Translations under genes and position numbers: made by a program
Part shown: positions 7,698 to 58,597 of the stretch, one piece after another
Layout of the letters: each line of letters begins with the position of its first letter
Position numbering within the stretch: the first letter of the stretch is position 1
The notes under the pieces: model-generated
What the model saw: the letters and a program-made list of their open reading frames with translations, nothing else
What the model was told of the DNA's origin: nothing
Databases searched by the model: none
NCBI GenBank assembly: GCA_015064015.1
Contig: SVTB01000001.1
Location: 2,762 to 66,761, forward strand
From: Oscillospiraceae bacterium
GTDB taxonomy: Bacteria > Bacillota > Clostridia > Oscillospirales > CAG-272
Reading direction: 5' to 3'
DNA: 64,000 nucleotides

Positions 7698-7753
7698 CAC
7701 AAAGGTTCTTAAAGAGGGCGTTGGGGAAACTTCTTTTAAGAAGTTTCCCCAAC
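7698..7753 (-). repeat. palindrome-plus-tail intergenic repeat, copy A
   Basis: Perfect 16-bp-arm palindrome GTTGGGGAAACTTCTT tt AAGAAGTTTCCCCAAC at 7720-7753. On the minus strand it is followed by the tail GCCCTCTTTAAGAACCTTTGTGG. Begins 8 nt after the GH4 stop. Confidence 0.7.
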
Positions 7754-7761
7754 AAAAGCAA

Positions 7762-9081
7762 TCAGAAAATAGGATACCCGGCCTTCTCGTGAGCCTCAAT
7801 GAGCTCGTCACAGAGGGAAACGATCTCGTCGGTGGACAGCTCGGCACCGGTATGAGGCTCCATCATAGCAGCCTGATACAAGGTCTCGCGCTTGCCGGTG
7901 TGAGCGGCCTCGATGGTCAGCATCTGAGGATAGATGTTGGAGGCGTTCATAGCAGCCAGCTGGAGAGGCAACTCACCAACATGAGTGGGAGTGATACCGT
8001 TGTTGTCTACGAGGCAAGGCACTTCCACGCAGGCATCCCAAGGCAAGTTGGAGATACAGCCGTGATTAAGTACGTTACCGCCGATCTTGTAAGGGGTGTT
8101 GGTCACGATGGCTTCCATAATATGGGATGCGTACTCCAAAGAACGGGTGTGCTGAACGTTGCCGCCGGCCATCAGCTCTTCCTTCTGCTTCTGCCAGCCC
8201 GCGATCTGGGCAACACAACGACGAGGATACTCGTCCAGCGGAATGTTGAACTTCTCAATCAGGTCGGGACGGTTGGGCTTGATGTAGAATGCGTTATACT
8301 CGGCGTTGTGCTCCGAGCTTTCAGTGCAGTAATAACCCAGCTTATCAATGTAGTCGAAGCGAACCATGTCATAATGCTTTTCGGTGGCGTTCTTCTCCTT
8401 GGCGCGGCGGCGGATTTCGGGATAGAGGTCATTGCCGTTCTTATCCTTGATCTCCAGCAGCCATGCCATGTGGTTAATACCCGCGATCTTTGACTGAGAG
8501 CCCTCAATCAGCTCGGGCATACCCACACCATGCAAAATGGCGGGCACGCAGACCTGAACGCTGTGGCACAAACCCACGGTCTTCACACCGGTATGTCTCT
8601 GCATATAGCCTGCCAGAATGGCCATAGGGTTGGTGTAGTTGAGGAACCATGCGTCAGGGCAAACCTCCTCCATGTCACGGGCAAAGCCCTTGAGAACGTG
8701 GATGGTTCTCATACCGCGCATAATACCGCCGATACCGAGGGTGTCTGCGATGGTCTGACGCAGACCGTACTTCTTGGGAATCTCGAAGTCAATGATGGTG
8801 CAGGGATCGTATAAGCCGACCTGAATGGCATCCACCACGAAGTTGGCACCGCGAAGAGCATCCTTGCGCTGTTCCACGCCCAAATACTTCTTAATAGTGG
8901 CGCGGCCCTGGTTGATGGTGTTGTTCATGGCGGTGATCAGGAGATAGGACTCCTCCAAGCGGTTGGCATCAATGTCGTAAAGCGCGATCTCTACATCGTG
9001 GAATGCAGGACACAACATGGTGTCACCCAAAACGTTTTTGGAAAATACGGTGCTGCCGGCACCCATAAATGTTACTTTCAT
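7762..9081 (-). CDS. glycoside hydrolase family 4 (NAD/Mn-dependent alpha-galactosidase/alpha-glucosidase type)
   Basis: 439 aa. N-terminal MKVTFMGAGSTVF Rossmann site, plus the GLCHSVQ and IAGINHMAW motifs typical of GH4 (MelA-like). Confidence 0.88.
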   Translation of the reverse strand: MKVTFMGAGSTVFSKNVLGDTMLCPAFHDVEIALYDIDANRLEESYLLITAMNNTINQGRATIKKYLGVEQRKDALRGANFVVDAIQVGLYDPCTIIDFEIPKKYGLRQTIADTLGIGGIMRGMRTIHVLKGFARDMEEVCPDAWFLNYTNPMAILAGYMQRHTGVKTVGLCHSVQVCVPAILHGVGMPELIEGSQSKIAGINHMAWLLEIKDKNGNDLYPEIRRRAKEKNATEKHYDMVRFDYIDKLGYYCTESSEHNAEYNAFYIKPNRPDLIEKFNIPLDEYPRRCVAQIAGWQKQKEELMAGGNVQHTRSLEYASHIMEAIVTNTPYKIGGNVLNHGCISNLPWDACVEVPCLVDNNGITPTHVGELPLQLAAMNASNIYPQMLTIEAAHTGKRETLYQAAMMEPHTGAELSTDEIVSLCDELIEAHEKAGYPIF

Positions 9082-9180
9082 GACAGACTCCTTTTATTTT
9101 TTATTTTATTTTTAAACAACGGAATACAACCCTCTATGTAGTCTCTCTATAGCCTTTTATAGTTCTTGAAGGGGCTCGCC

Positions 9181-10875
9181 TTATCTCACAATCTCGATAC
9201 CGAGGGGAGCTTCGATTTCAACGACGGTTTCGCCGTTTTGATCCTTGTGAGCCCAAACCTTGATCTCGCCCTTAGGGGTGGGGTAAGTGCCCTTGGCCCA
9301 ATCCAACCATGCCAGATCAGGCTTGACCTCGTACTTGCCGGGAGCAATATTCTTCACGCCCAGCACGTAGTTGGAGAGATAGGGACAGGGGCCGGAAGCC
9401 CAGCCATGGCAGAGGGAATGACGGAATTTGATATAGCAGTAGTTACCGTAGTCACCATGAATGTCCACCATACCCTCAGGAACTACCTCGTCGATACGAC
9501 CGGCGTTGATCATCCAATCGAGATCAAAGTCCTCCCAGAACGTGGTAGCACCCATATCCAGCATACCGCCCCAGTATTCCTTCATGTCGCGGAGCGCGCC
9601 TGCATGGTCACCCGCAGCGGCCTTGGCAGCCATAATGTAGTAGCCCATGAAGGTGGAATAGCCGTGACCGCCACCGGGAACCAGAACCTTTTCGTTGACC
9701 TCAACGGGATCAGCCAAACCTGCCAGCACCATGAAGGAGTTCGCCTGTTTGGCGGTGGTGGGCTCGGGCTTGTGAGCCTTCATGCGCTCGGCAGAGGCCT
9801 CACAGAGAGCGGCAGTCTCATCCTCGCCCAACTCGCGGAGCAGATAAGCACCGTTGTCCAGAGCCAACTTCAAAAGGCCTTGGAAGCCCACGTGCTTGGC
9901 CACAGGATCATCGTTGGTGGGCCAGTCCAGGAGACGGCCTTCGGGAAGGGTCTCGCCGCCGTCCTCGTCCACAAAGGAGGCAAGCAGGGTCAAGAGGCCG
10001 CGGAGATAATCTCTCTGCTCCTCCAGATATGCTTTGTTACCAAAAGCACGGTACCAGTCGCAGTGGATCAGGAGCCACCAGATGGAGTAAGCGGAAATGC
10101 CATTCATCCAGGCACCCACGGGGGTCTCGTCACGAACAACGTCCAGAGAGCGGGGCACAATTTCGTTGTAACCGAAGGTAGCCAAAATGGTGTTAACCTC
10201 AGTGTGCATATCACCGATCCATACCAGGCGGTCACGCTTGATGCCATCCCATAGGTATTCTTGCATATTGACGTGGGCGGTGTAAGCGGCGGTGTTCCAG
10301 ATGCGGGTCAGCTTTTCGTCGGAACAGGAGAAAGAGCCCTTGTAGTCAAGGTCGAGGTAATGAACCACACCCTGCACAGCCTTGAATTCCACAATGGCAT
10401 CATCATCAGCCAGCTCAATGCAAACAAATCGGAAGCCCGACTCGTTAGTCTCGTTGGCGGAGTAGAAGCCCACGTTCATGACGCGGTCGCGGGTGGCGTG
10501 ATCGTTGGTGGTGTTCTTCACCTTCAAGGGAGTGATCGCCTCCATAACGCTCTCACCGGTACGGACGATAATGTTGCAACGAGCGTCATCACCCATGCCC
10601 TTGGAGCCGGCATTCCAGATCATAAGGCGAACAGAGCCGGGGAACTCTATGCCGTAATCCAAAACGATCTTTGCGTGGGGCTGACCGGGCTTATTGATCA
10701 AGGCGCAACGGTCACCGGGCACCAGGGTAATCTGGTTGCTTCTCTCCTGCAAAAGAGATTCTGCGTTCGTAACGTTGCCCTCGGTGAGCACAACACGCTT
10801 GGGCGCGATGTAACGGCGAGTTCTGGGGTCAGTGATACTGCCGTTCAACGCTTGAAATTTTTCATTCAGCTTCAT
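9181..10875 (-). CDS. six-hairpin (alpha/alpha)6 glycosidase, GH78 alpha-L-rhamnosidase-like
   Basis: 564 aa. WDGIKRDRLVWIGDM and HGWASGP resemble the Bac_rhamnosid6H catalytic-domain motifs. No signal peptide. Confidence 0.65.
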   Translation of the reverse strand: MKLNEKFQALNGSITDPRTRRYIAPKRVVLTEGNVTNAESLLQERSNQITLVPGDRCALINKPGQPHAKIVLDYGIEFPGSVRLMIWNAGSKGMGDDARCNIIVRTGESVMEAITPLKVKNTTNDHATRDRVMNVGFYSANETNESGFRFVCIELADDDAIVEFKAVQGVVHYLDLDYKGSFSCSDEKLTRIWNTAAYTAHVNMQEYLWDGIKRDRLVWIGDMHTEVNTILATFGYNEIVPRSLDVVRDETPVGAWMNGISAYSIWWLLIHCDWYRAFGNKAYLEEQRDYLRGLLTLLASFVDEDGGETLPEGRLLDWPTNDDPVAKHVGFQGLLKLALDNGAYLLRELGEDETAALCEASAERMKAHKPEPTTAKQANSFMVLAGLADPVEVNEKVLVPGGGHGYSTFMGYYIMAAKAAAGDHAGALRDMKEYWGGMLDMGATTFWEDFDLDWMINAGRIDEVVPEGMVDIHGDYGNYCYIKFRHSLCHGWASGPCPYLSNYVLGVKNIAPGKYEVKPDLAWLDWAKGTYPTPKGEIKVWAHKDQNGETVVEIEAPLGIEIVR

Positions 10876-10955
10876 GATTGGGTCTCCTGTTTCGTTTTAT
10901 TCCAAAAAATTTTCAAATTTAATCACGGCCACATTGCGGCATCGTAACTATGAAT

Positions 10956-10984
10956 AATATACCATATTTTATATCGGCTGTCAA
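10956..10984 (-). promoter_or_regulatory. sigma-A type promoter of the GH78-like/GH4 operon
   Basis: Minus strand reads TTGACA, 17 nt (ending TGG), TATATT, about 80 nt upstream of ATG 10875. Confidence 0.6.
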
Positions 10985-17199: not shown

Positions 17200-17473
17200 C
17201 CACTTTCTTTCCTCGTCGAAAGAAAGTGGAGTAAAGAACGCCGCTCAAGGGAGATCTCTCAAGGTGACGCACGCCGCCTATGGCGGCAACAGCGTGTAAA
17301 GAACCTCCACACCCGATGCCCCGCCCCCACGGCGTTGGCTGACATAATACACGCGATAGCCGCCAAAGGCGGCGTGCGTCACGATGGGAGTTGGGTCCTG
17401 AGGGAGAACCGTAGGTTCTATCCCTCAGCGGCGCCTCTTTTGTAACTTTTCTCTCGACGAGGAGAAAAAAGTT
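17200..17473. other. GC-rich, heavily self-complementary intergenic element (candidate structured ncRNA or MITE-like element)
   Basis: Terminal hairpins at 17200-17229 (perfect 12-bp stem, loop CTCGTC) and 17444-17473 (12 bp with 1 mismatch, loop GACGAG, the reverse complement of the first loop). Central 119-nt rod at 17264-17382 (15+6+6 bp plus an apical CGCC/GGCG stem). Nested hairpin at 17398-17428. Only a weak 98-aa ORF overlaps it. Confidence 0.4.
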
Positions 17474-18170: not shown

Positions 18171-20390
18171 TCAGCGATTCTCTCTCTTTTTGAGAAGAAG
18201 AGCGCCGCCGCAAAGAGCCATCAAGGTCATGGCGCTGATAGCCATAGCAGAAGCGCACCCGCCCTGGTCAGGTGTAGCGACCGTCGCATCGGGCTCGGTG
18301 ACTTCGGGAGTCGCAACGGGAGCTTCGGTGGGTACATCCGTGGGCGCGTCGGTAGCGACGGGTGCCTCGGTGAACGCATCCGTAGGCTCTTCGGTGGGGG
18401 CTTCGGTAGGCTCCTCAGTGGGCATCTCAGGCTCGGAAACCGCCACATTCTCTAATGTTAAGAAGTGGAGCAGCTTTTCGGTATTACCGGCGGCAACAAC
18501 ACCAAAGCGCAGGGTAACCGTCTCTGCATCAATGATGGAAAGATCGGCAGTAGCATCAGCAAATACAGCCTTGGCTCCAGCAGCAGAGGTCAGGTTGCCT
18601 GCGGTTGCCGCATTCTGAGCGATCTCATCGCTTGCATCCGAGCGAACGGTATTGGTGCAAGGATACCAAGTTTCACCGTCTACGGACCAGAACAGGTCAC
18701 CTTGTCCGCCGTTGACGAACACCCAGCCGCTGATTTTTACCTTTTTTTCCACGGCCGTCACGGTGTCGGAAACTACGGCAGGCTTGATGGAGGCAGCCTT
18801 TTCTGCGTCAGACCAAGAAGAGGTGTATTCGGGATCACGCAGACCCATGAGGTCGGCATATGCCACACCATTGATACTCTCGGTTTTACCAATATAACGG
18901 TAAGAATAAGAGGGAGTGGTCTTGAGCGCGCTGTCCTCAGGATTGGGCTCTTCGGGCTTATAGCCGCCCTCGGGATCGGGGAGAAAGGCCGTGTTATAGC
19001 TTTCCAAATTGCCGGGAGCAGCATCCACGCCCTCATACACGATGGCCAAGCCGTTGATAACGCCGCGAACGCTGTTGGCGCCGTCTACGGCGGCAGATCT
19101 GCGGACGTAGTTATCGCCGGACAGGGTCACCATGGTGGTAGATCCGCCTCCGTCAAAGAGAATGGCAGTCTTCAGACCCAGTTCTTCGCAAAGGCGGGAA
19201 AGATTCTCCATAGTACAAGAAGCGCGGGAACCATCGCCCTTGGGAGTGGTAGACACCAGCAAAGGAGAGCCGTCGGCGCGAAGGCCTACGATGGAGCAAG
19301 GATAGTTCGTCTTGTTGCCTTGCTGGCCGGTGTAGCGGCCGTTTTCAATCAAGGTGAAGAAGCCGGCGATCGCATCAGTCACGGTAACCCACTTTGCCTT
19401 CTGTGCGGAGCTCATGCTGTCGCTGTTCACCGAGCAGGCGAACATGATCTTGTCACCTACGCCATACTTGCCGTCGATATTCTTGATGCTGTTGCCGCGG
19501 GCGGAAATCACAATGGTGTTCTTGTCAATGGCGGGACGTTGGGTCTTGTCGCCGCTCTTGAAGATGTGGGTAACCGTACCCGTCACGGTTTCGCTGAGAG
19601 AAAACGCGGTATCAGCTGCATTGACGTAAATTTCATAGGCATCTTCAAAAGCCATGGACACGTCACCGCCGCGCTGGTTATAGATAATGATAGAGTTGGG
19701 CGCAGGCAGACGGTTGATGCCTTGAGCAGAAACGACAGAGCCCGAGCCTGTATTGGTCATCTTGATACCAATGCTGGGCTTACCGATCATATAAGAGCCG
19801 TCGGGCAGCACGGCAAACACCGGGCCGAGAGACGCGGGTGTGCCGCGCTCCACATTGTCCTTCTTCGCCAGGTTGTTTTCATCGTTGATCTGTGCGGTAG
19901 CCCAAATCTCGCCGTCAATGATCTGCAGACCACGGGACACGGATACGTGCTTGACAGCGGGGCCGCTGGCGGCTTCGCCGTCACCGTCATAGTCGGTGTG
20001 GTAAACGATCCAAGGGTCGCCGTTGACAGCGGCCAGCACGGTAGAGTCGGTGTGCGTCTCGTTGTACTTGAGAGCCGAATTACCCATGGTCGCACGGCTC
20101 CAGTTGTAGGTGCCGCCATTGAGTACCTTAAAGGTAACACCGACGGCGTCATTGACATCAATGACGTTTAAAAGACCCTCGCGGGAAAGGCTATATTTAG
20201 AGCCCGAGGTCAAGGTCATCTGGGTAAGGGTTACACCCGTATCCTTACCATTCAACTTGATATTTTCGGCGTGAATTACATCGGCACCTGTGATGGGGTC
20301 AACCGCAGACACCGACAGCATCATGGCGAAGATGCCCAGCACAAGGGACAGCGCCATAACGAGAGACAAACATTTGATGTTTCTTTTCAT
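18171..20390 (-). CDS. surface protein with a phosphodiester glycosidase (NAGPA/DUF2233) domain, PT-rich linker and GGC-TM-KKR C-terminal tail
   Basis: ORF 18171..20423 (GTG) trimmed to ATG 20390, with AAAGGA upstream. Signal peptide MKRNIKCLSLVMALSLVLGIFAMMLSVSA. LAAVNGDPW and ILFDGGGSTTMV are typical of the NAGPA family. Linker PTEEPTEAPTEEPTD. Tail QGGCASAMAISAMTLMALCGGALLLKKRENR. Confidence 0.8.
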   Translation of the reverse strand: MKRNIKCLSLVMALSLVLGIFAMMLSVSAVDPITGADVIHAENIKLNGKDTGVTLTQMTLTSGSKYSLSREGLLNVIDVNDAVGVTFKVLNGGTYNWSRATMGNSALKYNETHTDSTVLAAVNGDPWIVYHTDYDGDGEAASGPAVKHVSVSRGLQIIDGEIWATAQINDENNLAKKDNVERGTPASLGPVFAVLPDGSYMIGKPSIGIKMTNTGSGSVVSAQGINRLPAPNSIIIYNQRGGDVSMAFEDAYEIYVNAADTAFSLSETVTGTVTHIFKSGDKTQRPAIDKNTIVISARGNSIKNIDGKYGVGDKIMFACSVNSDSMSSAQKAKWVTVTDAIAGFFTLIENGRYTGQQGNKTNYPCSIVGLRADGSPLLVSTTPKGDGSRASCTMENLSRLCEELGLKTAILFDGGGSTTMVTLSGDNYVRRSAAVDGANSVRGVINGLAIVYEGVDAAPGNLESYNTAFLPDPEGGYKPEEPNPEDSALKTTPSYSYRYIGKTESINGVAYADLMGLRDPEYTSSWSDAEKAASIKPAVVSDTVTAVEKKVKISGWVFVNGGQGDLFWSVDGETWYPCTNTVRSDASDEIAQNAATAGNLTSAAGAKAVFADATADLSIIDAETVTLRFGVVAAGNTEKLLHFLTLENVAVSEPEMPTEEPTEAPTEEPTDAFTEAPVATDAPTDVPTEAPVATPEVTEPDATVATPDQGGCASAMAISAMTLMALCGGALLLKKRENR

Positions 20391-20439: not shown

Positions 20440-20481
20440 CGGATTCAAGGGAAAGCCTTTCTTTTAAAAGACCTTCCCTTG
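20440..20481 (-). repeat. palindrome-plus-tail repeat family, degenerate copy G
   Basis: Minus strand reads CAAGGGAAggtcttttaaaagaaaggcTTTCCCTTG followed by AATCCG. Begins 3 nt after the stop at 20484. Outer 8-bp arms are perfect. Confidence 0.5.
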
Positions 20482-45825: not shown

Positions 45826-48800
45826 ATGGCAGTATTCAATCCGCAATTTAAAATCAACCAAATGGCAAAGGATATGGGTCTGAAGAGCAAAGATCTGACA
45901 GAACTGTTGGCCGCCAAAGGTATTTCGGACGTCAAGACGCAGAAGTCTCTGTCCGAAAGAGAATTTAATTTGCTGTTATCCTCCCTCACCGAGGCCAATC
46001 AGGTAGACAATATCTACGATTACATGGATGGAGTCACCCGTATTCCCTCCAAGAAAGCCGCAGAAAAGGCCGCTAAGATGGCCGAAGAGAAGGCCGCTGC
46101 CGAAAAGGCCGCTGCTGAGAAAGCCGCCGCCGAAAAGGCTGCCGCTGAAAAGGCCGCCGCTGAGAAAGCTGCCGCCGAAAAGGCTGCCGCTGAAAAGGCC
46201 GCTGCCGAAAAAGCTGCCGCCGAAAAGGCTGCCGCTGAAAAGGCCGCTGCCGAAAAAGCCGCTGCTGAGAAGGCTGCCGCCGAAAGAGCCGCTGCTGAGA
46301 AGGCTGCTGCCGAAAAGGTTGCCGCCGAGAAGGCTGCCGCTGAAAAGGCTGCCGCCGAAAAAGCTGCCGCCGAGCGCGCCGCCGAGAAGGTCGCCGCGGA
46401 ACGTGCCGCCATCGAGCGCACCGCCAAGGCATTGGCCGCTCAGCGTCAAGCCACCAACCAAAACAATAAAACCAATGACCGCCGCCAGGATCGCCCCGCT
46501 CAGGATCGTCCCCGCAATAGTGAGACGCCCCGTACCCCTGCGGCCGGTGGACGTGATACCCGTCCCGCGCAAGGACAGGGGCAGAAAAACGATCGCTTTG
46601 CTCAGGCAGGTGCCGGCCGTCCCGATAACCGTCAGGACAGCCGTGACAGCCGTGATAATCGCGACAACCGCGATAGCCGCGATAATCGTAGCCAGCAGAA
46701 AAACGATCGGGCCCAGAATGCGCGTTCCGACTATCGTCAGGACAATCGCATGGATGGCCGTGAGCGCGGCGAGGACTACGTACCCAGCACACCCCGTGAG
46801 CGCTTCCAGGTGCAGGCCATTGTTCGTGAGCAGACCCCCAAGGGCGGTATCCAGCAGACCAAGCCCCGCGGTGCTACCCGTGTGGTTGACACCCGCTCTG
46901 CCGACAGCGTGGATCTCTCCAAGTATGATGAGCGTTTGGACTCTTTCGTGTCTGAGCGCGTACAGGATACCCACGGCGGAAGCCAGAAGATCGGCAAGAA
47001 GCCCGGTCAGCAAGCAAACGGCCGTCCCGGCTCCAAGAAGCAGCAGCCTCAGCCCATGATGAAGGGCGGCAAGCCCGTGCCCGGCAAGAAACAGGCACCC
47101 GTCAAGAAGCAGCCCCTTAACGTGGAAATTCCCGACGAGATCGTGGTCAGCGATTTGGCCGCCCGTCTCAAGGTTACGGTTGGCGAAGTCGTCAAGCGTC
47201 TCATGATGATGGGTATGATGGTCACCGTCAACCAAACCGTAGACTTTGACACCGCCGCCATCGTGGCAGACGAGCTTGGTGCTGTGGTTACCAAAGAAGT
47301 GGTGGTTACCATCGAAGAAAAGCTGTTTGACACCACCGAGGACACCGAGGATATGCTGAAGCCCCGCGCCCCCGTTGTGTGCGTCATGGGCCACGTTGAC
47401 CACGGTAAGACTTCCCTTTTGGACGCCATCCGTCACACCCACGTTACCGCAGGCGAGGCCGGCGGTATCACTCAGCACATCGGTGCTTACCGTGTGCAGA
47501 TCAATGACCAAGACATTACCTTCCTGGACACCCCCGGTCACGAGGCCTTCACCGCTATGCGTGCCCGCGGTGCTCAAGCAACCGATATCGCCATCCTTGT
47601 GGTAGCCGCAGACGATGGTATCATGCCTCAAACCGTTGAGGCAATCAACCACGCCAAGGCCGCAGGCATTGACATTATCGTGGCCATCAACAAGATGGAT
47701 AAGCCCGGTGCTGATCCCGAAAATATCAAGCAGGAGCTCACCAAATATGATCTCGTACCCGAAGAGTGGGGCGGCGACGTCATTTGCGTTCCCGTATCGG
47801 CTTTGACCCGTATGGGTATTGACGACCTGCTGGAAAATGTCCTTCTGGTAGCCGAGGTTAAGGAGCTCAAGGCCAACCCCGCAAGACGCGCCAAGGGTAT
47901 CGTCATCGAAGCCAAGCTGGATAAGGGCCGCGGCCCTGTTGCCACCGTTCTTGTACAGAACGGTACGCTGAAGAGCGGTGATATTGTCATCGCAGGCACC
48001 GCTGTGGGTCACGTCAGAGTAATGAGCGACCATAACGGCCGCACTGTTAAGGTAGCAGGCCCCTCCGTTCCTGTAGAAATTACCGGCCTTTCCGACGTGC
48101 CGGACGCAGGTGATGAGTTCGAGGCAGTTGTCGACGAGCGTATGGCTCGCGAACTGGCCGAACAGCGCCGCGCCAAAGCCAAGGAAGAGGTCTTTAAGGC
48201 CAACGCGAGAGCGAACCTGAACGATCTGTTCAGCCAGTTGAATGCGGGTATCAAGGATCTCAACATCATCGTTAAAGCGGACGTAGACGGTACGGTGGAA
48301 GCCGTGAAGGCTTCTCTCATGAAGCTGTCCAACGAAGAAGTCCGTGTCCGCGTAATCCACGCCGCTTGCGGCGGTATCACCGAGGGCGACGTCACCTTTG
48401 CCGCCGCCTCCAACGCCATCATCGTCGGATTTAACGTCCGTCCCGACCGTCAAGCTTTGGATTCTGCCGACAGACAGAATGTGGAAATCAGAACCTACCG
48501 TGTCATTTACGAGTGCCTGGAGGAAATCGAGGCCGCTATGAAGGGTATGCTGGCGCCCAAGTTCCGTGAGAATCTTTTGGGCCACGCCGAGGTTCGCCAG
48601 ACTATCCACGTGCCCAACGTGGGTACCATCGCCGGTTCTTATATCACCGACGGTAAGATCATCCGTTCCGCCCAGATCCGTATCGTCCGCGACGGTATCG
48701 TGATCTTTGAAGACAAGATCAGTTCTCTCCGCCGCTTCAAGGACGACGTCAAGGAAGTGGCCACCGGCTATGAGTGCGGTGTCGGTCTTGACCGCTTTAA

Positions 48801-48869: not shown

Positions 48870-48918
48870 CAAGGAACCTTTTTGAAAAAGGTTCCTTGAC
48901 CTCCCAAAACTTTTAAAC
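48870..48918 (+). repeat. palindrome-plus-tail intergenic repeat, copy C
   Basis: CAAGGAACCTTTTT g AAAAAGGTTCCTTG followed by the tail ACCTCCCAAAACTTTTAAAC. Begins 12 nt after the infB stop. Confidence 0.7.
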
Positions 48919-50027: not shown

Positions 50028-50437
50028 GCCTGTATCCCACGCAAAATTCTCGGATGATCCAAAACTTTTCGTAGCATCCGAGCATAAGCGTGGATCTCCA
50101 ACCGAGTCACAGCGTCACCCTCGGCTCCATGAAGACCGATGCTGATGTTGCCGCCCTATGCTTCATCGACACAATACCTTTGTGCGAAGTATACGCGGCG
50201 TACTGCTGATGTGCGAACCGATGCGCCTGTCCGAAGTACGGAACGTCCCGACGCTCAAGTGATTTTGTGGCTCTGTGCATAGTATGTCGCGCTTTCCTTG
50301 GGTTACACGAGGAAAATTTTGAGTTTTTAACGCAAAGATCGAAATATATGATATTTGGCCATCTCTAAAAACCCTCTCACTGATAAATCGGCGGCACTTT
50401 CCTTTGAATTTTCAAAAATTTTGAAAGGGGTATGAGA

Positions 50438-50474
50438 AAAGGCACCCACCTGCAAGGGGCAGATGGGTGCCTTT
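50438..50474 (-). terminator. terminator after the CBM9-like surface protein gene
   Basis: Minus strand reads AAAGGCACCCATCTGC cccttg? GCAGGTGGGTGCCTTT (16-bp arms, 1 mismatch) followed by TCTCAT and a family-like tail CCCCTTTCAAAATTTTTGAAAATTC. Confidence 0.65.
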
Positions 50475-50501
50475 GATTAGGTTGTTATGTAAGATACAGG
50501 A

Positions 50502-51713
50502 TTAGTCCTTCTTCTTCAGAACAACAGCTGCAGCTGCTGCGGACAAGATCACTGCCACGGCGCCAAAGCCGATAACGCTACCGCAACCGCCGTCCTCAGT
50601 GGGCTTCTCGTTGTTAGCGGGAGCCTGAGTAGGAGCCTCGGTGGGAGCATCGGTAGGAGCATCGGTGGGAGCGTCGGTAGGAGCTGCGGTGGGAGCCTCA
50701 GTGGGTTCCTCAGTGGGTTCCTCGGGAGCCTCGGTGTGAGGAGGAGGAGTCTCGCTGGCAGCGTACACCTTGATGAACTCGCAGGTGAACTCCAGATCGG
50801 GATCGTAGGGGAGCTCGAGGTACATACCGTTGTCAGCGGGAGCCCAGGTAACCTCAGGGGTTACACCGGCTTCCTGAGCCTTCAGAGTACCTGCAGCCCA
50901 CAGAACTTCACCACCGGTGGTGGCACGGTCGAGGTAGTACAGAGCGCAGTTAACTTCCAGGGGGTCGCCCTCCCAAACGTCGCAAACGTAACCGTCAGCA
51001 AAGCCTCTCCATGCGAAGTCATGGTACAGCTTGGACCAAGCAAGTGCGAACTCTGCGCACCAGCCGGCCTCGGTCTTAGCGGTGGTACCCTTAACCAGGG
51101 TCACGCCGGGCAGATCCTCGTCCTCGGATTCCTCGGTGATAACGCCGTCGTCATCGTTGTGCTGGATCATAATCTGAATGGGAGTAGGATCCTCGCCCAG
51201 AGGAGAGAAGGAGTAGAAGATGCACTGCTGGTTGGAAGAGAACAGATCGGGATCTGCCTCGATAGCCTTACCCAGAGCACGGTCGAAGTCGATGGAGATC
51301 TGGAAAGCGTCGCCGTTGTAGCCGGCTGCGTTGTTAGAAATAGCAACAGCAGGATCGGTTACGTAGAAGCCGATGTACAGGAAATCCTTATCGGCTACGA
51401 AGTAAGACTGGATACCCCAGTTCTCGGGGATACCACCAGCCTGGTTGTCAGCGGTACCGCCAACCCAGGAGATCATCTGGCTGGGACCGATGGGGGTGAG
51501 GTTGTAACCGGCCTCTACCCAGTCGTTCATATCGCCGTCGGAGAGATCCAGCTTCTCGGAAGCTTGGGTATCCCACTCGATGGTGATACGGCCAACGGTA
51601 GAGAAGTTCTCCTCAGAACCGCCGCAGTAGAAACCGGGAGTAGCGGATGCGAAAACAACGCTCAGAGAGAGCAGCATAACTACGCTCAGAGCAATCGCAA
51701 GAATCTTTTTCAT
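50502..51713 (-). CDS. secreted CBM9/DOMON-like surface protein with a PT-rich linker and GGC-TM-KKK C-terminal tail
   Basis: ORF trimmed to ATG 51713, with GGAGG 8 nt upstream. Signal peptide MKKILAIALSVVMLLSLSVVFASA. DKDFLYIGFYVTD and GDAFQISIDF suggest a carbohydrate-binding beta-sandwich. Linker EAPEEPTEEPTEAPTAAPTDAPTDAPTDAPTEAPT. Tail EDGGCGSVIGFGAVAVILSAAAAAVVLKKKD. Confidence 0.8.
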   Translation of the reverse strand: MKKILAIALSVVMLLSLSVVFASATPGFYCGGSEENFSTVGRITIEWDTQASEKLDLSDGDMNDWVEAGYNLTPIGPSQMISWVGGTADNQAGGIPENWGIQSYFVADKDFLYIGFYVTDPAVAISNNAAGYNGDAFQISIDFDRALGKAIEADPDLFSSNQQCIFYSFSPLGEDPTPIQIMIQHNDDDGVITEESEDEDLPGVTLVKGTTAKTEAGWCAEFALAWSKLYHDFAWRGFADGYVCDVWEGDPLEVNCALYYLDRATTGGEVLWAAGTLKAQEAGVTPEVTWAPADNGMYLELPYDPDLEFTCEFIKVYAASETPPPHTEAPEEPTEEPTEAPTAAPTDAPTDAPTDAPTEAPTQAPANNEKPTEDGGCGSVIGFGAVAVILSAAAAAVVLKKKD

Positions 51714-51935: not shown

Positions 51936-53090
51936 TCAAGCGCCTGCGGCGGCTTCCTCGCGGGTCCAGGAACGGAACTCAGCGGGGGTATACTCAGCGT
52001 TTTCAGCGCTCCAGTCAAAGAAGCTGATGCTGGAGTAGGTGTTGCCCGTCTCTACGCAGAAGTCGATGTTGTCACCCCAGTTGGCTGCATTATAGAACAC
52101 GGACACGAACTTACGAGGCATATCCACGGTGTAGGAGGCGGCCAGGCAGTAGGAGAAGGTCATCTCGGCGTTGTTGACCACGCACTCCTCAAAGCTGTAC
52201 TCGTCCACCATGCCGGTAGCATCATAACCAAGAATACCTGCCAGGTTGTGGAAACCGGAGAGCTTAATGTTCTCAACGGTGCACTGATAGAAGGTAGCAG
52301 GGCCCCAAGCGGCACCCATGATACCGGCCACGCGGAAAGCGATGGGACGGCCACCGTTGGCGGGATCGGTATTGTTGTAGTCCATCCAACCGTTGACGGT
52401 GAAGTTGGTAACCTTTACGTTGGTGAAATCGCAAGAGGCACCGTTCCAGCTCTTACCTACCAGGCAGCCTACGTGACGCTCGTTGGCATCGATGGTGCAG
52501 TTGTCAAAGGTGATATCCTCAAAGTAAAGAGCATCCAGCGCAACGCCCACAAAGCCGGCGCCGATTTGATCCTCGGGGATCGTCTCGCAAGCCTCGTTGT
52601 AGTTGATGTACATATTGGAGATGGTGTGGCCGTTGCCATCGAAGGTGGTACCGCCCAGGCAGTAGCCATCCAGAGGCTGCCAGGTATAGCCGGTCAGGTC
52701 AATGTCATCCAGGAAAACGACGGTCATATCAAAGAAGACCTCGCCATCCTCGTTGATGGCCTTGTTGAATGCCATCAAATCTTCGGCAGTACGGATCACC
52801 ACATAGTATGCGGGATCGTACTCATCGTCACCGCCAAGGGTGTTGTCGGTGTTTTCCTCACCGTCTTCGGTGGGGGTTTCTACGGGAGCGTCGGTAGTCT
52901 CCTCGGTGGGAGCCTCGGTAACTTCCTCGGTGGGGGCCTCGGTAACTTCCTCGGTAGGAGCATTGGTGGGAGTGTTGACGGGTGCCTTGGTACCCTCGCC
53001 ACCGGACTCGCCGCCGTCACAAGCGACGAAAGTCAGCACGCAGGTGAGAGCCAATACCAAGCAAATCAGCATAGCGCGAATGTTTTTCAT
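51936..53090 (-). CDS. lipoprotein with an N-terminal PT-rich linker and a GLUG-like beta-helix domain
   Basis: ORF trimmed to ATG 53090. Lipobox TFVACDG. Linker NAPTEEVTEAPTEEVTEAPTEETTDAPVETPTE. DDIDLTGYTWQPL..FDGNGHTISN..IGAGFVG is paralogous to the C-terminal half of the 27729..29075 product. Confidence 0.8.
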   Translation of the reverse strand: MKNIRAMLICLVLALTCVLTFVACDGGESGGEGTKAPVNTPTNAPTEEVTEAPTEEVTEAPTEETTDAPVETPTEDGEENTDNTLGGDDEYDPAYYVVIRTAEDLMAFNKAINEDGEVFFDMTVVFLDDIDLTGYTWQPLDGYCLGGTTFDGNGHTISNMYINYNEACETIPEDQIGAGFVGVALDALYFEDITFDNCTIDANERHVGCLVGKSWNGASCDFTNVKVTNFTVNGWMDYNNTDPANGGRPIAFRVAGIMGAAWGPATFYQCTVENIKLSGFHNLAGILGYDATGMVDEYSFEECVVNNAEMTFSYCLAASYTVDMPRKFVSVFYNAANWGDNIDFCVETGNTYSSISFFDWSAENAEYTPAEFRSWTREEAAAGA

Positions 53091-54647: not shown

Positions 54648-54702
54648 GTTTTTCAAGTTCTTGAGGGGGGCATGGGGGAACCTCTTTCAAGAAGTTCCCC
54701 CA
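54648..54702 (-). repeat. palindrome-plus-tail intergenic repeat, copy B
   Basis: Minus strand reads TGGGGGAAC ttcttgaaagag GTTCCCCCA followed by the tail TGCCCCCCTCAAGAACTTGAAAAA. Begins 9 nt after the stop at 54711. Confidence 0.65.
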
Positions 54703-54710
54703 AAAAAATC

Positions 54711-55439
54711 TTACTCCTGTGCCTTCAGGAAATCAATGCAGCGCTTGACTTCTTCGAGGCCGGTGGGATCGAGGCCTTCGCTCTCCACCACCATGCGGAT
54801 ATTCTGCTTGATGGCATACTCACGAACCTTGAGGACAGGGGCTTCACCCTGACCGAGGGATTTGCCCTGACCGCCCTTAAAGCCGTCCTTCAGGTGGATG
54901 ACCTTGACACGGCCGGAGAGGCGCTTCAGGGTTTCCACGGGGTCGATACCCGCATTAAACGCCCAGAAGGTGTCGATCTCGAAATCAAAAGTACCCCGCT
55001 TTTCCAGCTCGGAGTGGATGGTGGAGCCCCAAGGCATGACCACAAACTCATGGCTGTGGTTGTGGTAGCCAAGGGAAATACCCTCCTCTGCCAAGCGAAG
55101 CTGTGCCTTATTCATGACAGCACAGAAGTCGATGATCTTATCCAGGGTGGAAAGATCCGCGCCGGGGATGATGTAATTGGGGTTGCCGATGGTTTTGTGG
55201 TAGGCGATGGTAGCCTCGATGTTCTCGGGGAGCAGTTCTACCCAGCCGGAGTGAGTGCCGCTGCACTTCAGTCCGTATTTGTCCTGCCACTCCTTGACCT
55301 GCTCGGCAGAGTGGCCGAAGAAGCCTGCGTACTCCACGTACTTGTAGCCCATCTCGGAAACTGCCTTGAGAGTGCCTTCCAGATCCTTGTCCGTAACGTC
55401 TCTGACGCTGAAAAGTTGAAGTCCGTATTCGATTGCCAT
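54711..55439 (-). CDS. sugar phosphate isomerase/epimerase (xylose isomerase-like TIM barrel)
   Basis: 242 aa. LQLFSVRD..MGYKYVEYAGFF..VIHLKDG pattern of the AP_endonuc_2 family. Confidence 0.85.
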   Translation of the reverse strand: MAIEYGLQLFSVRDVTDKDLEGTLKAVSEMGYKYVEYAGFFGHSAEQVKEWQDKYGLKCSGTHSGWVELLPENIEATIAYHKTIGNPNYIIPGADLSTLDKIIDFCAVMNKAQLRLAEEGISLGYHNHSHEFVVMPWGSTIHSELEKRGTFDFEIDTFWAFNAGIDPVETLKRLSGRVKVIHLKDGFKGGQGKSLGQGEAPVLKVREYAIKQNIRMVVESEGLDPTGLEEVKRCIDFLKAQE

Positions 55440-55462
55440 GTTTTTTCTCCTTTATTTTTTTG

Positions 55463-55520
55463 CCAAAGGAAACTTTTTGAAAAAAGTTTCCTTTGGAATC
55501 CTTCAAAAACTTTTAAATTG
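55463..55520 (+). repeat. palindrome-plus-tail intergenic repeat, copy D
   Basis: CCAAAGGAAACTTTTT ga AAAAAGTTTCCTTTGG (perfect 16-bp arms) followed by the tail AATCCTTCAAAAACTTTTAAATTG. Confidence 0.75.
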
Positions 55521-55655
55521 TAAAACTAAAATGTGCCCGAAAGAGAAATAAAGCTTTCAGAGGTATGGTCGAGGGAAATGATCGAATCGTACAAGCATAT
55601 CACCCGACCACATGGGGCCCCTGCCCCATTCTGATATTTTGGACACGCAAGAACC

Positions 55656-55702
55656 CTTCTTAAAAAAGTTTCCTTTGGAATCCTTCAAAAACCTTTAAAT
55701 GG
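55656..55702 (+). repeat. palindrome-plus-tail intergenic repeat, copy E (left arm missing)
   Basis: AAAAAGTTTCCTTTGGAATCCTTCAAAAAC is 30/30 identical to copy D, which lies about 180 bp upstream in direct orientation. Confidence 0.75.
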
Positions 55703-55773
55703 TAAAGCAAATATATCCCGACATCCTTTCCAAAAAGGCTCAGGTGGGGATGTGGGTGCGAATCCCTATGCTC

Positions 55774-57753
55774 TTACTTATACTCAACCGTGATAGAAAC
55801 CGCAGTTGAGTCGTAGGAGGTATTTAAATTTTTGTTGACGAGGAAAGCAATTTCGTCACCCTGCTTCACCGAGAGAGTGATAGTATCATCACCGGGAGTG
55901 TCGTGGGTCACGAGAATACCGCCGTTGCGGGCTTCTCCGATGGTGATTTTTTCGCCGTTGTGCAGAATATAGAAGATGATACCGTCTCCGTCGGAGGATG
56001 CCATCGACAGGCTGTACGAGCAGGAGATGTCGCCATCCTTAGGCGCGGTAAATACAATGGCGGTGTCAGCCGCATCGGGATGCACGCTGCCGCTTGAAAC
56101 AAGATTGAAGCTTCCGTTGCCTTGCCAACGGTTGTTGGCAGCATCAAAGGTCATGGGAACCAATTTTTTACGCGTATAAACGCAGTAGCTCCATCCCTTG
56201 ACCCCTTGCTCGGTAGCGAAGTCTCCGGGGAAGCTGTAAGCCAGCAAAGGCTCTGTAGGCACTTGAGTGGTCAGATCATCCAACACCTTGATATACACAA
56301 AGCGTCCGCCCTCAGCCAGCTTGTTATACCGACCAATATATCCATCGGGATTGCGCTTTTTAAAGAGATCCAGCAAGGAGATCTCCAAGATAGGCGAGCT
56401 CTCGGTAGGCTGCACCACGCCGGGAGCATTGTCCCCCAGCCATGTGGAGGATATCTCCTGCCAAACAGGACGATAAGTCTCATAGTTGGCATCTATGCTC
56501 CAGTTGGCGGCGCTAACGTAGGTACAACCGCGCTCGAAGCAGACAAGTCCCTGCGCTAAATATCTTTCCGGGGTTGCTCCATTTTGGTGAGGACCATCAA
56601 TTTCTTGAGCCAGCTCCACCGAAGCCGGCAAGACCGAACGGATGTAGTCCATGGAAAAATGATGGTTCATAAGAGGGCCATCGTCGATCCACACCACATC
56701 GGCGTGCTCGGCCAAATCGGCCACGCCATAGGTACCGCGCAGAGCCGAGACCGTATCATACACACACCCCAACTGGAGAGCAAATTTGCTATTGGCGGTC
56801 ACTTCATCCTGAGCAACAGCCAAACGATCAATTACATTTTTGAGGCTTTGGTGACGGAAGGTATACCAAAGCTGCCCCACATTGTTGCCCGCCGTAGTGC
56901 TCGGAGGCAGAACCTCTTCAAAGCTTCCGTAAGAGGTATCCAAGGCTTTATTCAAAGCCGCGATATCTTGATAGTTTTCCTTCAGGAAGGTGCGGAAGGC
57001 CGCAACCGCATGGGTTGAATGATCGTATTCCGCCGTACACCAGTATTCCGTTTCAGCATACTGGGAAAAAGCGGGAAGATAGAACAGCACGTCCTCTCCG
57101 TACAGGCCATCGTAATGCTTGACTGCATTTTGGTAGAACGCAACGCACTTGGAAACGGCGTTTTCGGAATTGAAGGAAATCTGAAGACGATCCCCCGTCA
57201 TAGAGCCGCCCATACAAAGATTTCCACTCGGATCCCGCATGATATCGTCCTCGGAAAGCACGGTGTCACCCTTGCGGCGGGTCATATCCAAGGAGATAGC
57301 CACCTTCATACCCTTCTCTCTGACCACGTAGTTAATGAGGGGGTCAAAGGCGGTGTACTCATAGACACCTGCCGTAGTCTCTACATGATGCCACGGAATA
57401 TGTACCTTAATGGCGTTGAATCCGTCGGCCGCCACTGTATCAACAATATTTTTAAAAGCGTCGAGGGAATTGATTTCAAAATTCCATATACGGAAAATGA
57501 AATACCGTTCGCCGATCTCCAAGGGCTCAACGGGCATGGTGGGTTCCTCCTCGGTGGGTGTTTCGTCGGGTACTCCGGTAGGAATGTCGGTAGGCGCACT
57601 CGTTTCTGCCTGTATGGGCGCATGAGTCCCTGCTTGTGTCGCGCCCTCCGTAGGCGCTGAAGTACCATGCTCTCCCGATGATTCCGAGGAACACGCCGGC
57701 AAGACGGACAAGGCCATGGCAAAGCAAAGCAAAAGCAACAGAATTTTTTTCAT
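55774..57753 (-). CDS. lipoprotein, GH42-like (beta-galactosidase-type TIM barrel) glycoside hydrolase
   Basis: ORF (TTG 57780) trimmed to ATG 57753, with AAGGAGG upstream. Lipobox VLPACSS. PT-rich linker. AIKVHIPWHHVETTAGVYEYTAFDPLINYV and AAFRTFLKENYQDIAALNKAL resemble the GH42 N-terminal domain. Confidence 0.7.
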   Translation of the reverse strand: MKKILLLLLCFAMALSVLPACSSESSGEHGTSAPTEGATQAGTHAPIQAETSAPTDIPTGVPDETPTEEEPTMPVEPLEIGERYFIFRIWNFEINSLDAFKNIVDTVAADGFNAIKVHIPWHHVETTAGVYEYTAFDPLINYVVREKGMKVAISLDMTRRKGDTVLSEDDIMRDPSGNLCMGGSMTGDRLQISFNSENAVSKCVAFYQNAVKHYDGLYGEDVLFYLPAFSQYAETEYWCTAEYDHSTHAVAAFRTFLKENYQDIAALNKALDTSYGSFEEVLPPSTTAGNNVGQLWYTFRHQSLKNVIDRLAVAQDEVTANSKFALQLGCVYDTVSALRGTYGVADLAEHADVVWIDDGPLMNHHFSMDYIRSVLPASVELAQEIDGPHQNGATPERYLAQGLVCFERGCTYVSAANWSIDANYETYRPVWQEISSTWLGDNAPGVVQPTESSPILEISLLDLFKKRNPDGYIGRYNKLAEGGRFVYIKVLDDLTTQVPTEPLLAYSFPGDFATEQGVKGWSYCVYTRKKLVPMTFDAANNRWQGNGSFNLVSSGSVHPDAADTAIVFTAPKDGDISCSYSLSMASSDGDGIIFYILHNGEKITIGEARNGGILVTHDTPGDDTITLSVKQGDEIAFLVNKNLNTSYDSTAVSITVEYK

Positions 57754-57769
57754 TTCTACGGACACCTCC

Positions 57770-58522
57770 TTATGCTTCAAAGGGTTTTTTAATACCCATT
57801 TCCGTCAAGCGGTTGCAATAGTCCTTCACGCGTTCGGGGAGATAATCCTCCACCCTATGTCCGTCAAAGCCCACACTGACACGAACACCCGACTTTCGGA
57901 CGATCTCCTGCTTTTGAGTATTCTCAAAGAAATTCAACATATATGCGTGTTGGCGGTAGCCATGGATGGAATCATAGCTCACATTCATTTCCCAGAAAAT
58001 ATTCTCATCCGCCATGCGCTTGAAATAATCCAGAGGATCAGTACCCAGTTTCGCAATATGCGCAAACAGATCGGTATGAGCCACACCTACCACAGGGGTG
58101 CCGCAGCGCTTGGCAAAGGCAAAGAGATCTCCCCCCGTCATGGAGGTAGCGGCATCCACGTTTTCGACGAGGCAATAATCAAAATAAGAGATATCTGCCC
58201 CGTCGGGTAAAGAGAAATTGGGATGTTGCTCGCTCTTCAAGGTGCATATTTCAATGCCCCGCAAAACCTTAATGCGAGAAGCGTATTTTTCACGAATCAA
58301 GTTGATATGGTCGTAGTAGCGGCGCAGAGTGCGCTCGTAATTGTCCAGTTCCATATTGGCTGTAGCGCAGAAAACGCTGTGACGGGCATATCCGATGCCG
58401 TAGTTATGGTCAGTGATGCCAAACAGCTCCAGTCCCCCGTCAATGGCGGCCTCCACGATGGCCTCGGGCGTATCCTTTCCGCAGAAAGAATAGTAGGTGT
58501 GAGAATGTAGGTCTTGCAGCAT
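57770..58522 (-). CDS. PHP-domain phosphoesterase (histidinol-phosphatase family)
   Basis: ORF 57770..58642 trimmed to ATG 58522 (MLQDLHSHTYYSFCGKD, the classical PHP N-terminus). The upstream 40 codons run through repeat copy F and a leader terminator. Confidence 0.8.
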   Translation of the reverse strand: MLQDLHSHTYYSFCGKDTPEAIVEAAIDGGLELFGITDHNYGIGYARHSVFCATANMELDNYERTLRRYYDHINLIREKYASRIKVLRGIEICTLKSEQHPNFSLPDGADISYFDYCLVENVDAATSMTGGDLFAFAKRCGTPVVGVAHTDLFAHIAKLGTDPLDYFKRMADENIFWEMNVSYDSIHGYRQHAYMLNFFENTQKQEIVRKSGVRVSVGFDGHRVEDYLPERVKDYCNRLTEMGIKKPFEA

Positions 58523-58539
58523 GATATTCCCTTTCTTGC

Positions 58540-58597
58540 ATAAAAGTTTTTGAAAGAGGGTTCCCAGGGAGAATACTTTTTTCAAAAAATTTCTTTC
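58540..58597 (-). repeat. palindrome-plus-tail repeat, degenerate copy F
   Basis: Minus strand reads GAAAGAAATTTTTTGAAAAAAGTATTCTC followed by the tail CCTGGGAACCCTCTTTCAAAAACTTTTAT, immediately upstream of the PHP gene RBS. Confidence 0.55.

Follow-up and report, generated by a model that had tools for sequence, protein, structure and literature searches.

Can a bacterial intergenic repeat be built to a plan that neither a transcription terminator nor a mobile palindrome calls for? The question is raised by a stretch of 64,000 nucleotides from an Oscillospiraceae bacterium (assembly GCA_015064015.1, contig SVTB01000001.1, positions 2,762 to 66,761 of the forward strand), referred to here as the window, which carries a dispersed non-coding repeat about 55-65 nt long in six copies (A-F). 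In this repeat, a palindrome is followed by a tail, and the tail is the mirror of the right arm of the palindrome (its reverse, not its reverse complement) and co-varies with the arms. Polymerases produce reverse complements, not mirror images, and a sequence and its mirror image cannot be read as one site by a chiral protein. The triple helix is the one established setting that requires a strand to equal the reverse of another. The mirror-related tail therefore points to a triple-helix design, rather than to a terminator or a classical repetitive extragenic palindromic (REP) element. On balance, this REP/BoxC-like dispersed repeat, found mostly just past stop codons, is probably a potential intrastrand triplex.

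An original prediction, made from the letters of the window, had described seven intergenic copies of a hairpin followed by a tail, and had considered a REP/BIME-like or terminator-associated family, possibly mobile, whose arms co-vary while the tail is conserved. The sequences and folding of copies A-D bear out the hairpin and the tail at the places described, and all six family copies lie between genes. The constant tail is the part that fails, as the tail changes together with the arms under the mirror rule.

The tail as the mirror of an arm

The palindrome of the element is perfect and 10-18 bp long. Its 5' arm runs from a purine block (GGGGAAA-type) through a C to TTYTT, the apex is usually GA, and after a turn of 1-3 nt the tail gives the 3' arm backwards, as CCCCTTT-C-AARAA-C, before ending in TTTYAAAA. 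The inner stem is the conserved part, while the outer stem is variable. Read outward from AARAA, the right arm equals the tail read backwards from AARAA, and this includes the variable outer stem, as in the arm and tail pairs GTTTCCCTCCCCCG and CTTCCCTCCCCC, GGTTCTCC and CCTCTCC, and TCCCCTCTCGC and CCCCTCTCG. There are two regular departures from the mirror: the G or Gs beside AARAA are replaced by C, and one T is usually dropped. Within the inner block, arms of the type TTTTT/AAAAA go with the tail AAAAAC in 58 cases against 1, and arms of the type TTCTT/AAGAA with AAGAAC in 36 against 1.

Against permuted pairings, the relation between the tail and the reversed right arm reached z = 7.4-9.0, as compared with z <= 4.3 for direct, complement and reverse-complement relations. 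Mutual information between arm and tail columns is as strong as that of some stem pairs, and the strongest covarying column pairs outside the stem each join an arm column to a tail column. In a fixed register, 87% of levels are canonical triples (left arm-right arm-tail G-C-C, A-T-T, T-A-A or C-G-G), as against 70 +/- 1% with tails permuted among elements, and none of 1000 permutations reached the observed value. For the variable outer levels alone, the figures are 75% and 48 +/- 2%; with one element taken per genome (44 metagenome-assembled genomes, MAGs), they are 75% and 49 +/- 3% (0/4000 permutations). The fetched DNA contains 334 perfect hairpins with stems of at least 11 bp; a mirror score of at least 8 is reached by 58 of them, compared to 2 with shuffled tails.

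Four elements with an asymmetric inner purine block distinguish a mirror from a direct copy, and all four carry the mirror and none the copy (AGAAAGG with CCAAAGA, AAGAAAG with CAAAGAA twice, and AAGAG with CAGAA). A reading in which the tail would instead form Watson-Crick pairs with the left arm and loop was rejected on this ground, and also because the C before AARAA is invariant while the loop G varies.

Breadth of the family

A covariance model was built from 68 copies, all from outside the window. With E-values that are rough for such a home-made model, it scored D at 69.8 bits (E = 3e-13), B at 57.4, A at 55.7 (E = 4e-10), C at 51.4, F at 39.1 (E = 2e-6) and E at 24.6 (E = 0.003). Read on the opposite strand, the hairpins of the window score 20-35 bits lower, and this difference is therefore the contribution of the tail to the model score.

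Further copies are numerous. About 140 full-length matches above 45 bits were found in 681 kb of pattern-selected loci; across some 370 kb of loci from soil and elsewhere that had been retrieved for a different purpose, the model hit nothing but close relatives of the window. Species-representative genomes were also scanned with a hairpin-only pattern, GGAAMCTTYTT-N1-2-AARAAGKTTCC, in which the tail was not specified. It occurs at at least 117 loci, where about 2 would be expected under uniform base composition by our own estimate. In 97 of 128 hairpin-pattern matches the tail stands on one side only, and in no match does it flank both. Conversely, a tail-only search of 860 kb gave 143 tails, 114 of them with a perfect hairpin of at least 9 bp within 16 nt upstream, and 32 of these 114 hairpins have arms outside the search pattern.

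Among the matches listed, whose titles all begin with 'MAG', perhaps owing to scan order, the majority are gut Clostridia/Eubacteriales MAGs. Other carriers among them are Desulfovibrionaceae (two complete chromosomes), Acidobacteriota, Omnitrophota, Opitutales, Thermoguttaceae/Planctomycetota, Aminicenantes, Thermodesulfobacteriota and Desulfomonilaceae. The repeat family thus occurs in several phyla and is not lineage-specific. An identical 46-nt element (CCAGGAACCTTTTTGAAAAAAGGTTCCTGGACCTCCAAAAACTTTT) is present in L022 (611-666) and L089 (6304-6359), of an Acidobacteriota MAG, and in L035 (6439-6494), of an Omnitrophota MAG, and its presence in two phyla suggests horizontal spread or very tight constraint. 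BLAST searches of plasmids and phages gave no match to the element, and the hairpin pattern occurs in just 3 viral contigs; the element is therefore not mainly phage- or plasmid-borne.

A triple-helix reading

In a triple helix, a pyrimidine third strand lies parallel to the purine strand (T.A-T, C+.G-C) and a purine third strand antiparallel to it (A.A-T, G.G-C). The blocks of the element are ordered as a purine-rich outer left arm, a pyrimidine-rich outer right arm and, from the stem foot, a pyrimidine tail. In the naming scheme of Hoyne/Maher and Holder et al. (PMC4666352), this arrangement would make the tail strand a class III potential triplex and the opposite strand a class I potential triplex. 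Towards the apex the purines switch to the other arm, and the tail goes from pyrimidines to purines. Such a switch of arms is what an alternate-strand triplex would require, and the skipped level and the odd C would then fall exactly at the crossover.

On this model, the arms would snap into a hairpin when the DNA becomes single-stranded, either on the lagging-strand template or through supercoil-driven extrusion, and the tail would occupy the major groove of the hairpin, changing arms at the purine/pyrimidine junction. The same fold could arise in a transcript, though this is less likely. The opposite strand would form outer G.G-C and inner T.A-T triples, which are free of protonation, and by standard triplex chemistry this strand would be expected to form a triplex more readily at neutral pH. 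Once folded, the knot could serve at gene boundaries as a barrier, and also promote rearrangement as a hot spot. Copies might spread through duplication or a trans-acting enzyme, and would persist in intergenic DNA, often in the place of a terminator hairpin.

Several points weigh against this reading. We infer the triplex from covariation only, the register with its one skipped level was picked after inspection of the data (the permutations used the same register), and kinship between copies may still inflate the statistics. As the seeds were found via a fixed hairpin or tail core, the apparent breadth of the family is affected as well. At the junction level the tail C stands opposite a C-G pair, which is a non-canonical triple, and about one quarter of the outer levels are non-canonical, mostly with an A at the turn. 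C-rich third strands require protonation, which makes the version on the tail strand a weak one at neutral pH. Alternate-strand crossover has been demonstrated for synthetic oligonucleotides and is not known for a natural element. A purely structural requirement does not explain near-identical cores across phyla, and the 25 Pfam families that occur most often in 115 neighbouring open reading frames (ORFs) include no transposase family that might account for spread. Lastly, two asymmetries could point to a strand-specific, RNA-level role. In 82 intergenic elements, with genes taken from simple longest-ORF calls, the hairpin side adjoins a sense stop codon in 47 cases (median 18 nt), and of 121 elements read in tail orientation, 68 have GA as the apex dinucleotide and 5 have TC.

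A further-reaching claim can be put forward only tentatively: that the repeat is a natural alternate-strand intramolecular triple helix whose three strands selection holds in register, in hundreds of copies and in seven or more phylum-level groups, a knot placed at gene boundaries for the use of the cell or of a selfish element. If so, the knot might be a polymerase stop independent of a U-tract, or the recognition structure of a structure-specific mobilising enzyme.

DNA or RNA

The two asymmetries fit a rival explanation, in which the repeat is an RNA element at the 3' ends of genes. Its hairpin and pyrimidine tail would form a major-groove triplex in the transcript (U.A-U, C+.G-C), which would shield the mRNA 3' end from exonucleases or, with no U-tract involved, aid the release of RNA polymerase. 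As a rule there is no other strong 3' structure beside the element, as a canonical terminator follows within 110 nt of the tail in only 11/110 elements (14/600 random windows), and in relatives the position is taken by a canonical terminator in L126 and by a different member of the family in L125. Intrastrand triplexes of class III (pyrimidine motif) are also able to form in RNA (PMC4666352).

The composition of the stems does not follow this expectation. Among 136 stems (about 2000 pairs) there are 18 mismatches, of which 6 are G.T and 8 A.C. Functional RNAs normally carry G.U pairs on the transcribed strand only, and no such bias, and hence no wobble-pair asymmetry that would pick an RNA strand, was found in these 136 stems. 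Between tandem genes, the element is as frequent in sense (18) as in antisense (18); convergent contexts number 18 and divergent ones 8. In 29 of the 82 intergenic elements the hairpin side adjoins a divergent start (median 44 nt), and the spacer is longer on the tail side than on the hairpin side. The first 10 nt past the stem contain 2.2 T on average, which is no U-tract, and C+ runs are unfavourable at neutral pH. Furthermore, the inner AARAA of the tail follows a purine-motif code, and triples of this kind are not known to form in RNA (PMC4666352). Because of the absent G.U bias, the equal sense and antisense counts and the purine-type inner triples, a structure at the DNA level is favoured over RNA. 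A role in RNA is kept open by the proximity to stop codons and the apex bias, and we regard it as unlikely, though worth retaining. Local GC skew gives a weak sign of replication-strand bias, the C-rich strand bearing the tail 63 times as against 43 (p = 0.06).

Other functions for the conserved sequence were considered. A promoter reading of the tail and apex, with TTGAAA as the -35 box, was rejected, as inspection gave no consistent -10 box at 16-18 nt; promoter calls on the elements of the window gave one weak call, inside F. Small ORFs were rejected because frames are not conserved (the length of the outer stem varies) and stops are present. No conserved 5' flank extends the element: flanks with GGAGTACGC or GCCTCCGGCGGC are subfamily-specific, and the information upstream of the stem is about zero. 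A site for integration host factor (IHF; TCAANNNNTT) is matched only in part, and Firmicutes are generally held to be without IHF.

Turnover and the possibility of a mobile element

Comparison of the gene between copies B and D (Table 1) with metagenome relatives shows turnover of the repeat. In the window the upstream spacer of this gene is 334 nt long and holds E and D. In four relatives (83-94% protein identity) it is 41-60 nt long, lacks D and E, and has only a small G+C hairpin roughly where the hairpin of D lies. At the place of B, L125 (93% identity) carries a different family member, whose tail matches its arm (CCAGAACCC.../ACTCCCAAAAAC) and is succeeded by a canonical terminator, and L131 (97% identity) has yet another member with different neighbours. 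There is a plain terminator in L126, and nothing in L127, L128 and L130. Copies are therefore gained, lost and replaced at gene ends faster than the proteins diverge.

These differences in presence and absence are compatible with a second rival, a non-autonomous mobile element of the classical REP/REPIN type. An HUH/Y1, RAYT-like transposase would recognise the hairpin foot and cut the tail, and the relation between arm and tail would reflect DNA-DNA contacts inside the transpososome, not a free-standing fold. IS200/IS605 transposases use base triples between guide and cleavage sequences beside a hairpin. The density of six copies in 64 kb also suits this explanation, as do master-like copies in some genomes (those of MAG JAFTIL01 share CAAG-GGAAAC...CTTG-ACCCTTC) and the several loci with matches near contig ends. 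In addition, tail-to-tail doublets occur in L013 (120-270), L059 (1840-1970) and L091 (160-290 and 2610-2740). These REPIN-like composites consist of two elements with an AT-rich spacer between them and a conserved flank, GATAAATTGTTGTTTATGGGGGTACGC, at the bounds. The stretch past the tail that copies C, D and E have in common fits duplicative spread.

The definition of a REP includes a tetranucleotide tag, GT[AG]G or CGTC, placed 0-2 nt 5' of the hairpin (PMC6006769). Within -6..+4 of the stem foot, GT[AG]G was found in 5/120 elements on the tail strand and 7/120 on the opposite strand, and CGTC in none, so the defining tag is absent. Fixed ends are lacking, comparison of filled and empty sites, whose flanks are not alignable, revealed no target-site duplication, and the mirror of 10-14 nt far exceeds the 4-nt guide/cleavage contacts of IS608. 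A MITE would be expected to have terminal inverted repeats with such a duplication; in this family conservation lies in the inner stem, and the outer stem varies. REPs are normally lineage-specific, unlike a core that is common to several phyla, and the Pfam families named above provide no candidate transposase. A canonical REP identity does not hold, and a mobile element of the classical REP/REPIN type appears rather improbable. Of the REP/BIME likeness in the original prediction, the dispersed multi-copy intergenic palindrome therefore stands and the tag does not. The suggested mobility agrees with the turnover in close relatives.

Two side observations concern sequences associated with the elements. 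A repeat of about 85 nt (GTCTCGCTGCGGCTCGGTCACGCCGCGGCTCTG...CGCTTCGCTACCC) occurs in two MAGs (L091, about 3490-3575; L131, about 560-650), and in L091 it separates the hairpin of one element precisely from its tail, as though it had been inserted there. In L027, L048, L066, L102 and L110, elements are immediately preceded by small GGGGC-N3-4-GCCCC hairpins, many of them in tandem, and the two together form mosaic clusters recalling BIMEs.

Protein sites and terminators

An operator-like site would also make use of a perfect palindrome with a conserved inner sequence: a dimeric DNA-binding protein would sit on the palindrome and a further subunit on the tail, which shares the AARAA block with the right arm, as a third half-site. 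However, such a half-site would be a direct or inverted copy and not a mirror, the sites number in the hundreds beside unrelated housekeeping genes, and the outer stems vary freely, which makes this explanation very improbable.

Equally remote, and refuted for practical purposes, is the explanation by ordinary intrinsic terminators or unrelated hairpins with a chance or compositional likeness downstream. A, B and C do lie shortly past stop codons and the window also has ordinary terminators, but the elements lack a U-tract, the tail is worth 20-35 bits of model score, and it accompanies the hairpin in many phyla while co-varying with it. A terminator scan flagged none of B, C, D and F, yet it found the ordinary terminators of the window, so the terminator part of the original prediction is not upheld.

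Copies of the repeat in the window

The window has a G+C content near 52% and a gut Clostridia-like gene content that includes infB, a GH4 glycosidase, GH42 and a NUDIX gene. It contains zero Rfam matches at the gathering score and zero tRNAs, and the surroundings of B, D and E gave only sub-threshold chance matches to Rfam. The apex pattern CTTYTTNNAARAAG, with at most one mismatch, occurs 10 times in the window as compared with 0.58 expected, and the tail core 21 times as compared with 8.1. The positions of all copies are given in Table 1.

Table 1. Copies of the repeat, and similar features, in the window (positions are those of the window; minus-strand parts are given in reading direction)
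Feature	Position	Strand	Description
Copy A	7698..7753	-	left arm 7753-7738 (GTTGGGGAAACTTCTT), loop AA, right arm 7735-7720
Copy A, tail	7719-7698	-	GCCCTCTTTAAGAACCTTTGTGG; whole copy starts 8 nt past stop codon of GH4 gene 7762-9081
Copy B	54648..54702	-	left arm 54702-54689, loop GA, right arm 54686-54673, one T.G pair
Copy B, tail	54672-54648	-	TGCCCCCCTCAAGAACTTGAAAAAC; whole copy starts 8 nt past stop codon of gene 54711-55439
Copy C	48870..48918	+	left arm 48870-48883, loop G, right arm 48885-48898
Copy C, tail	48899-48918	+	ACCTCCCAAAACTTTTAAAC; whole copy starts 11 nt past stop codon of infB (initiation factor 2, IF-2)
Copy D	55463..55520	+	left arm 55463-55478, loop GA, right arm 55481-55496
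Copy D, tail	55497-55520	+	AATCCTTCAAAAACTTTTAAATTG
Copy E	55651..55719	+	partial: right arm 55662-55678, tail 55679-55702; no hairpin on folding
Copy F	58539..58597	-	decayed palindrome 58597-58567; tail 58566-58539 (..CCCTCTTTCAAAAACTTTTATG)
Hairpin G	20440..20481	-	16-bp hairpin with G.U pairs, without tail, 2-3 nt past stop codon
Tail-like sequence	9155..9172	-	CCTTCAAGAACTATAAAA; just past stop codon of gene 9181-10875, without hairpin
Tail-like sequence	50407..50430	-	CCCCTTTCAAAATTTTTGAAAA; after canonical terminator 50465-50443

On folding, A, B, C, D and G each form a stem of 13-16 bp that is perfect or nearly so, and in A-D the tail follows the hairpin. The copies of the window also obey the mirror rule. 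In A, the right arm AAGAA-G-TTT-CCCC corresponds to AAGAA-TTT-CTCCC in the tail read backwards; in B, AAGAG-G-TT-CCCCC corresponds to AAGAA-C-T-CCCCCC; and in D, AAAAA-G-TTT-CC-T corresponds to AAAAA-C-TT-CC-T. D is the only copy in the window that matches the strict hairpin pattern. As the original prediction had it, A, B and C begin shortly past sense stop codons, at distances of 8-11 nt, and D and E lie upstream of a gene. D is 23 nt upstream of the ATG (55439) of a minus-strand gene, in antisense orientation to it, and E occupies the same 334-nt spacer.

The missing left arm of E and the degenerate palindrome of F were also correctly described. In E, AAGAACCCTTCTT stands in place of the left arm, and the copy is an 84% direct repeat of D, 182 nt apart (repeat family D9). 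C, D and E have about 26 nt after the hairpin in common, which reaches beyond the tail (repeat family D17). F combines a decayed stem with a good tail, which still mirrors the right arm GTATTCTCCC, and it has a canonical terminator (58643-58612) on one side and the ATG at 58521 on the other.

Of the seven copies originally counted, six thus belong to the family, with scores of 24.6-69.8 bits. The seventh, G, scores 9.3 bits (E = 5.8) with the same model and has no tail; it is a separate hairpin outside the family, and its likeness is limited to an AT-rich apex. The two tails without hairpins in Table 1 may be remnants of lost elements. The one at 9155-9172 is not significant with the covariance model (10.9 bits, E = 2.7). 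The other had been pointed out as a tail-like sequence beside an unrelated terminator; the surrounding segment, 50407-50478, is a borderline match (18 bits, E = 0.07), and the tail does not mirror an arm of the neighbouring terminator.

A NUDIX protein identical to the one encoded next to copy C is present in GCA_045590235.1 and three other metagenome assemblies. In all four independent assemblies, an element with the same model score stands at the position of copy C, and D and B were found in a fifth. As they recur in independent assemblies, the elements are not assembly artefacts.

Other features of the window

Several further repeats occur in the window. Coding repeats with a 12-nt period are found in six genes (6418-6538, 18307-18437, 41641-41723, 50608-50744, 52865-52997 and 57549-57597). 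They encode linkers rich in Pro, Thr and Glu and are alike enough across genes to be grouped as one family, and one linker protein has a weak PT-repeat match. The N-terminal part of infB (46024-46428) consists of about 27 tandem 15-nt units that are Glu-Lys-Ala-Ala-Ala-like, and from these units IF-2 is unusually long, at 1021 amino acids. On the minus strand, 29183-36550 is an ORF of 2455 amino acids with internal repeated segments.

Two inverted repeats were also noted. One (I8, 17256-17390), in a gene-poor stretch, has 43-nt arms that are 84% complementary and 49 nt apart, and each arm holds its own GCCGCC..GGCGGC mini-hairpin. The other (63817-63879), which is unrelated to the family, has 29-nt arms that are 86% complementary with a 5-nt loop, and lies downstream of a canonical terminator at 63909-63943.

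Significance of the family

Bacterial repeats that form triple helices are known mainly from one G-rich family. The family described here gives three-way covariation (arm, arm and tail) over dozens of stems in many genomes, and comparative evidence of this kind is, to our knowledge, rare for base triples. Its natural variants are ready-made mutants for biophysical and reporter tests. As the repeat is abundant in uncultured gut Clostridia, it may break assemblies, produce spurious small ORFs, occupy terminator sites and mark intergenic regions that rearrange. It is thus relevant to annotation, to operon prediction and to the role of non-B DNA in the dynamics of bacterial genomes. Within the literature searched, no publication on this repeat family was found, only a general paper on triplex repeats.

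Comparison with known systems

In the ENE with its A-rich tail and in MALAT1, a 3' tail folds onto a stem, and the major-groove triples could hide the 3' end. The present family resembles these RNA stability elements in having a 3' tail that would fold back on the stem. In ENE/MALAT1, a U-rich internal loop clamps the A-rich tail, the elements are eukaryotic or viral, and they show normal RNA covariation with G.U pairs; the present family has none of these features. Like intrinsic terminators, the family often has a strong hairpin a few to about 20 nt past a stop codon, and it often occupies a place at which relatives have a canonical terminator. Unlike them, it has no U-tract, the top of its stem is A/T-rich, conserved sequence that co-varies with the stem comes after it, and between tandem genes it is in antisense as frequently as in sense.

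A pyrimidine mirror repeat is the classical requirement of an intramolecular triplex. As in H-DNA, the outer right arm and the first half of the tail form such a repeat (e.g., TTTCCCTCC..CCTCCCTT). In contrast to H-DNA, the mirror tract is short (2 x 6-10 nt) and lies beside a palindrome, and the duplex acceptor would be the hairpin of the same strand instead of neighbouring duplex. With REP, BIME and REPIN sequences, the family shares a dispersed extragenic palindrome of 20-40 bp in many copies, often near gene ends, with inverted doublets in some genomes and polymorphic presence or absence. It differs from REPs in its perfect stems, its mirror-coded 3' tail, a core common to several phyla and the absence of the GT[AG]G/CGTC tag, and from REPIN-RAYT systems in that no associated transposase was seen among the frequent Pfam families of the neighbouring ORFs.

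The closest resemblance is to BoxC/TMECO and the other repeats, in E. coli and further bacteria, that count as potential intrastrand triplexes (PIT repeats; Hoyne et al. 2000; Holder et al. 2015, PMC4666352). These form triplexes in vitro, as demonstrated physically for TMECO, and are tied to rearranged loci, with no proven function (PMC4666352). Like them, the present repeats are short, multi-copy and intergenic, and in both a third block, the mirror of one arm, comes after the hairpin, with all three blocks fitting the triplex code. Their loci are likewise rearranged, with sharply unequal copy numbers in close relatives. TMECO is a class II repeat of the order pyrimidine-purine-purine (CCCTCNCCC-N3-6-GGGNGAGGG-N3-GGGNGAGGG), is G/C-rich and is found in Proteobacteria only, and the window copies differ from its pattern in both order and sequence. 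In contrast, the tail strand of the present family belongs to class III and the opposite strand to class I. In each arm a block of purines is followed by one of pyrimidines, so that a third strand would have to switch arms. It has an A/T-rich apex, CTTYTT-GA-AARAAG, and a further CTTTYAAAA, and besides Clostridia its carriers include at least six phylum-level groups.

A G-rich repeat consisting of a hairpin and a mirror (CCCCCTTCCCC..GGGGAAGGGGG..GGGGGGATAGGGGG) was also observed in L128 (2479-2530), in L129 (3621-3670 and 4915-5181) and upstream in L130. It has the class II layout of TMECO/BoxC, and two kinds of triplex-coded repeats therefore coexist in the lineage. The family described here has the three blocks by which PIT/TM repeats are defined, namely a purine block, its Watson-Crick pyrimidine partner and a mirror third strand with canonical triples. 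It falls outside the ITxF criteria, which call for uniform stems of 6-15 nt and loops of 1-6 nt, as each of its arms is a purine plus a pyrimidine block; if the outer block only is counted, the 'loop' becomes a 14-nt mini-hairpin. The family is therefore a variant of PIT repeats that published search criteria would miss.

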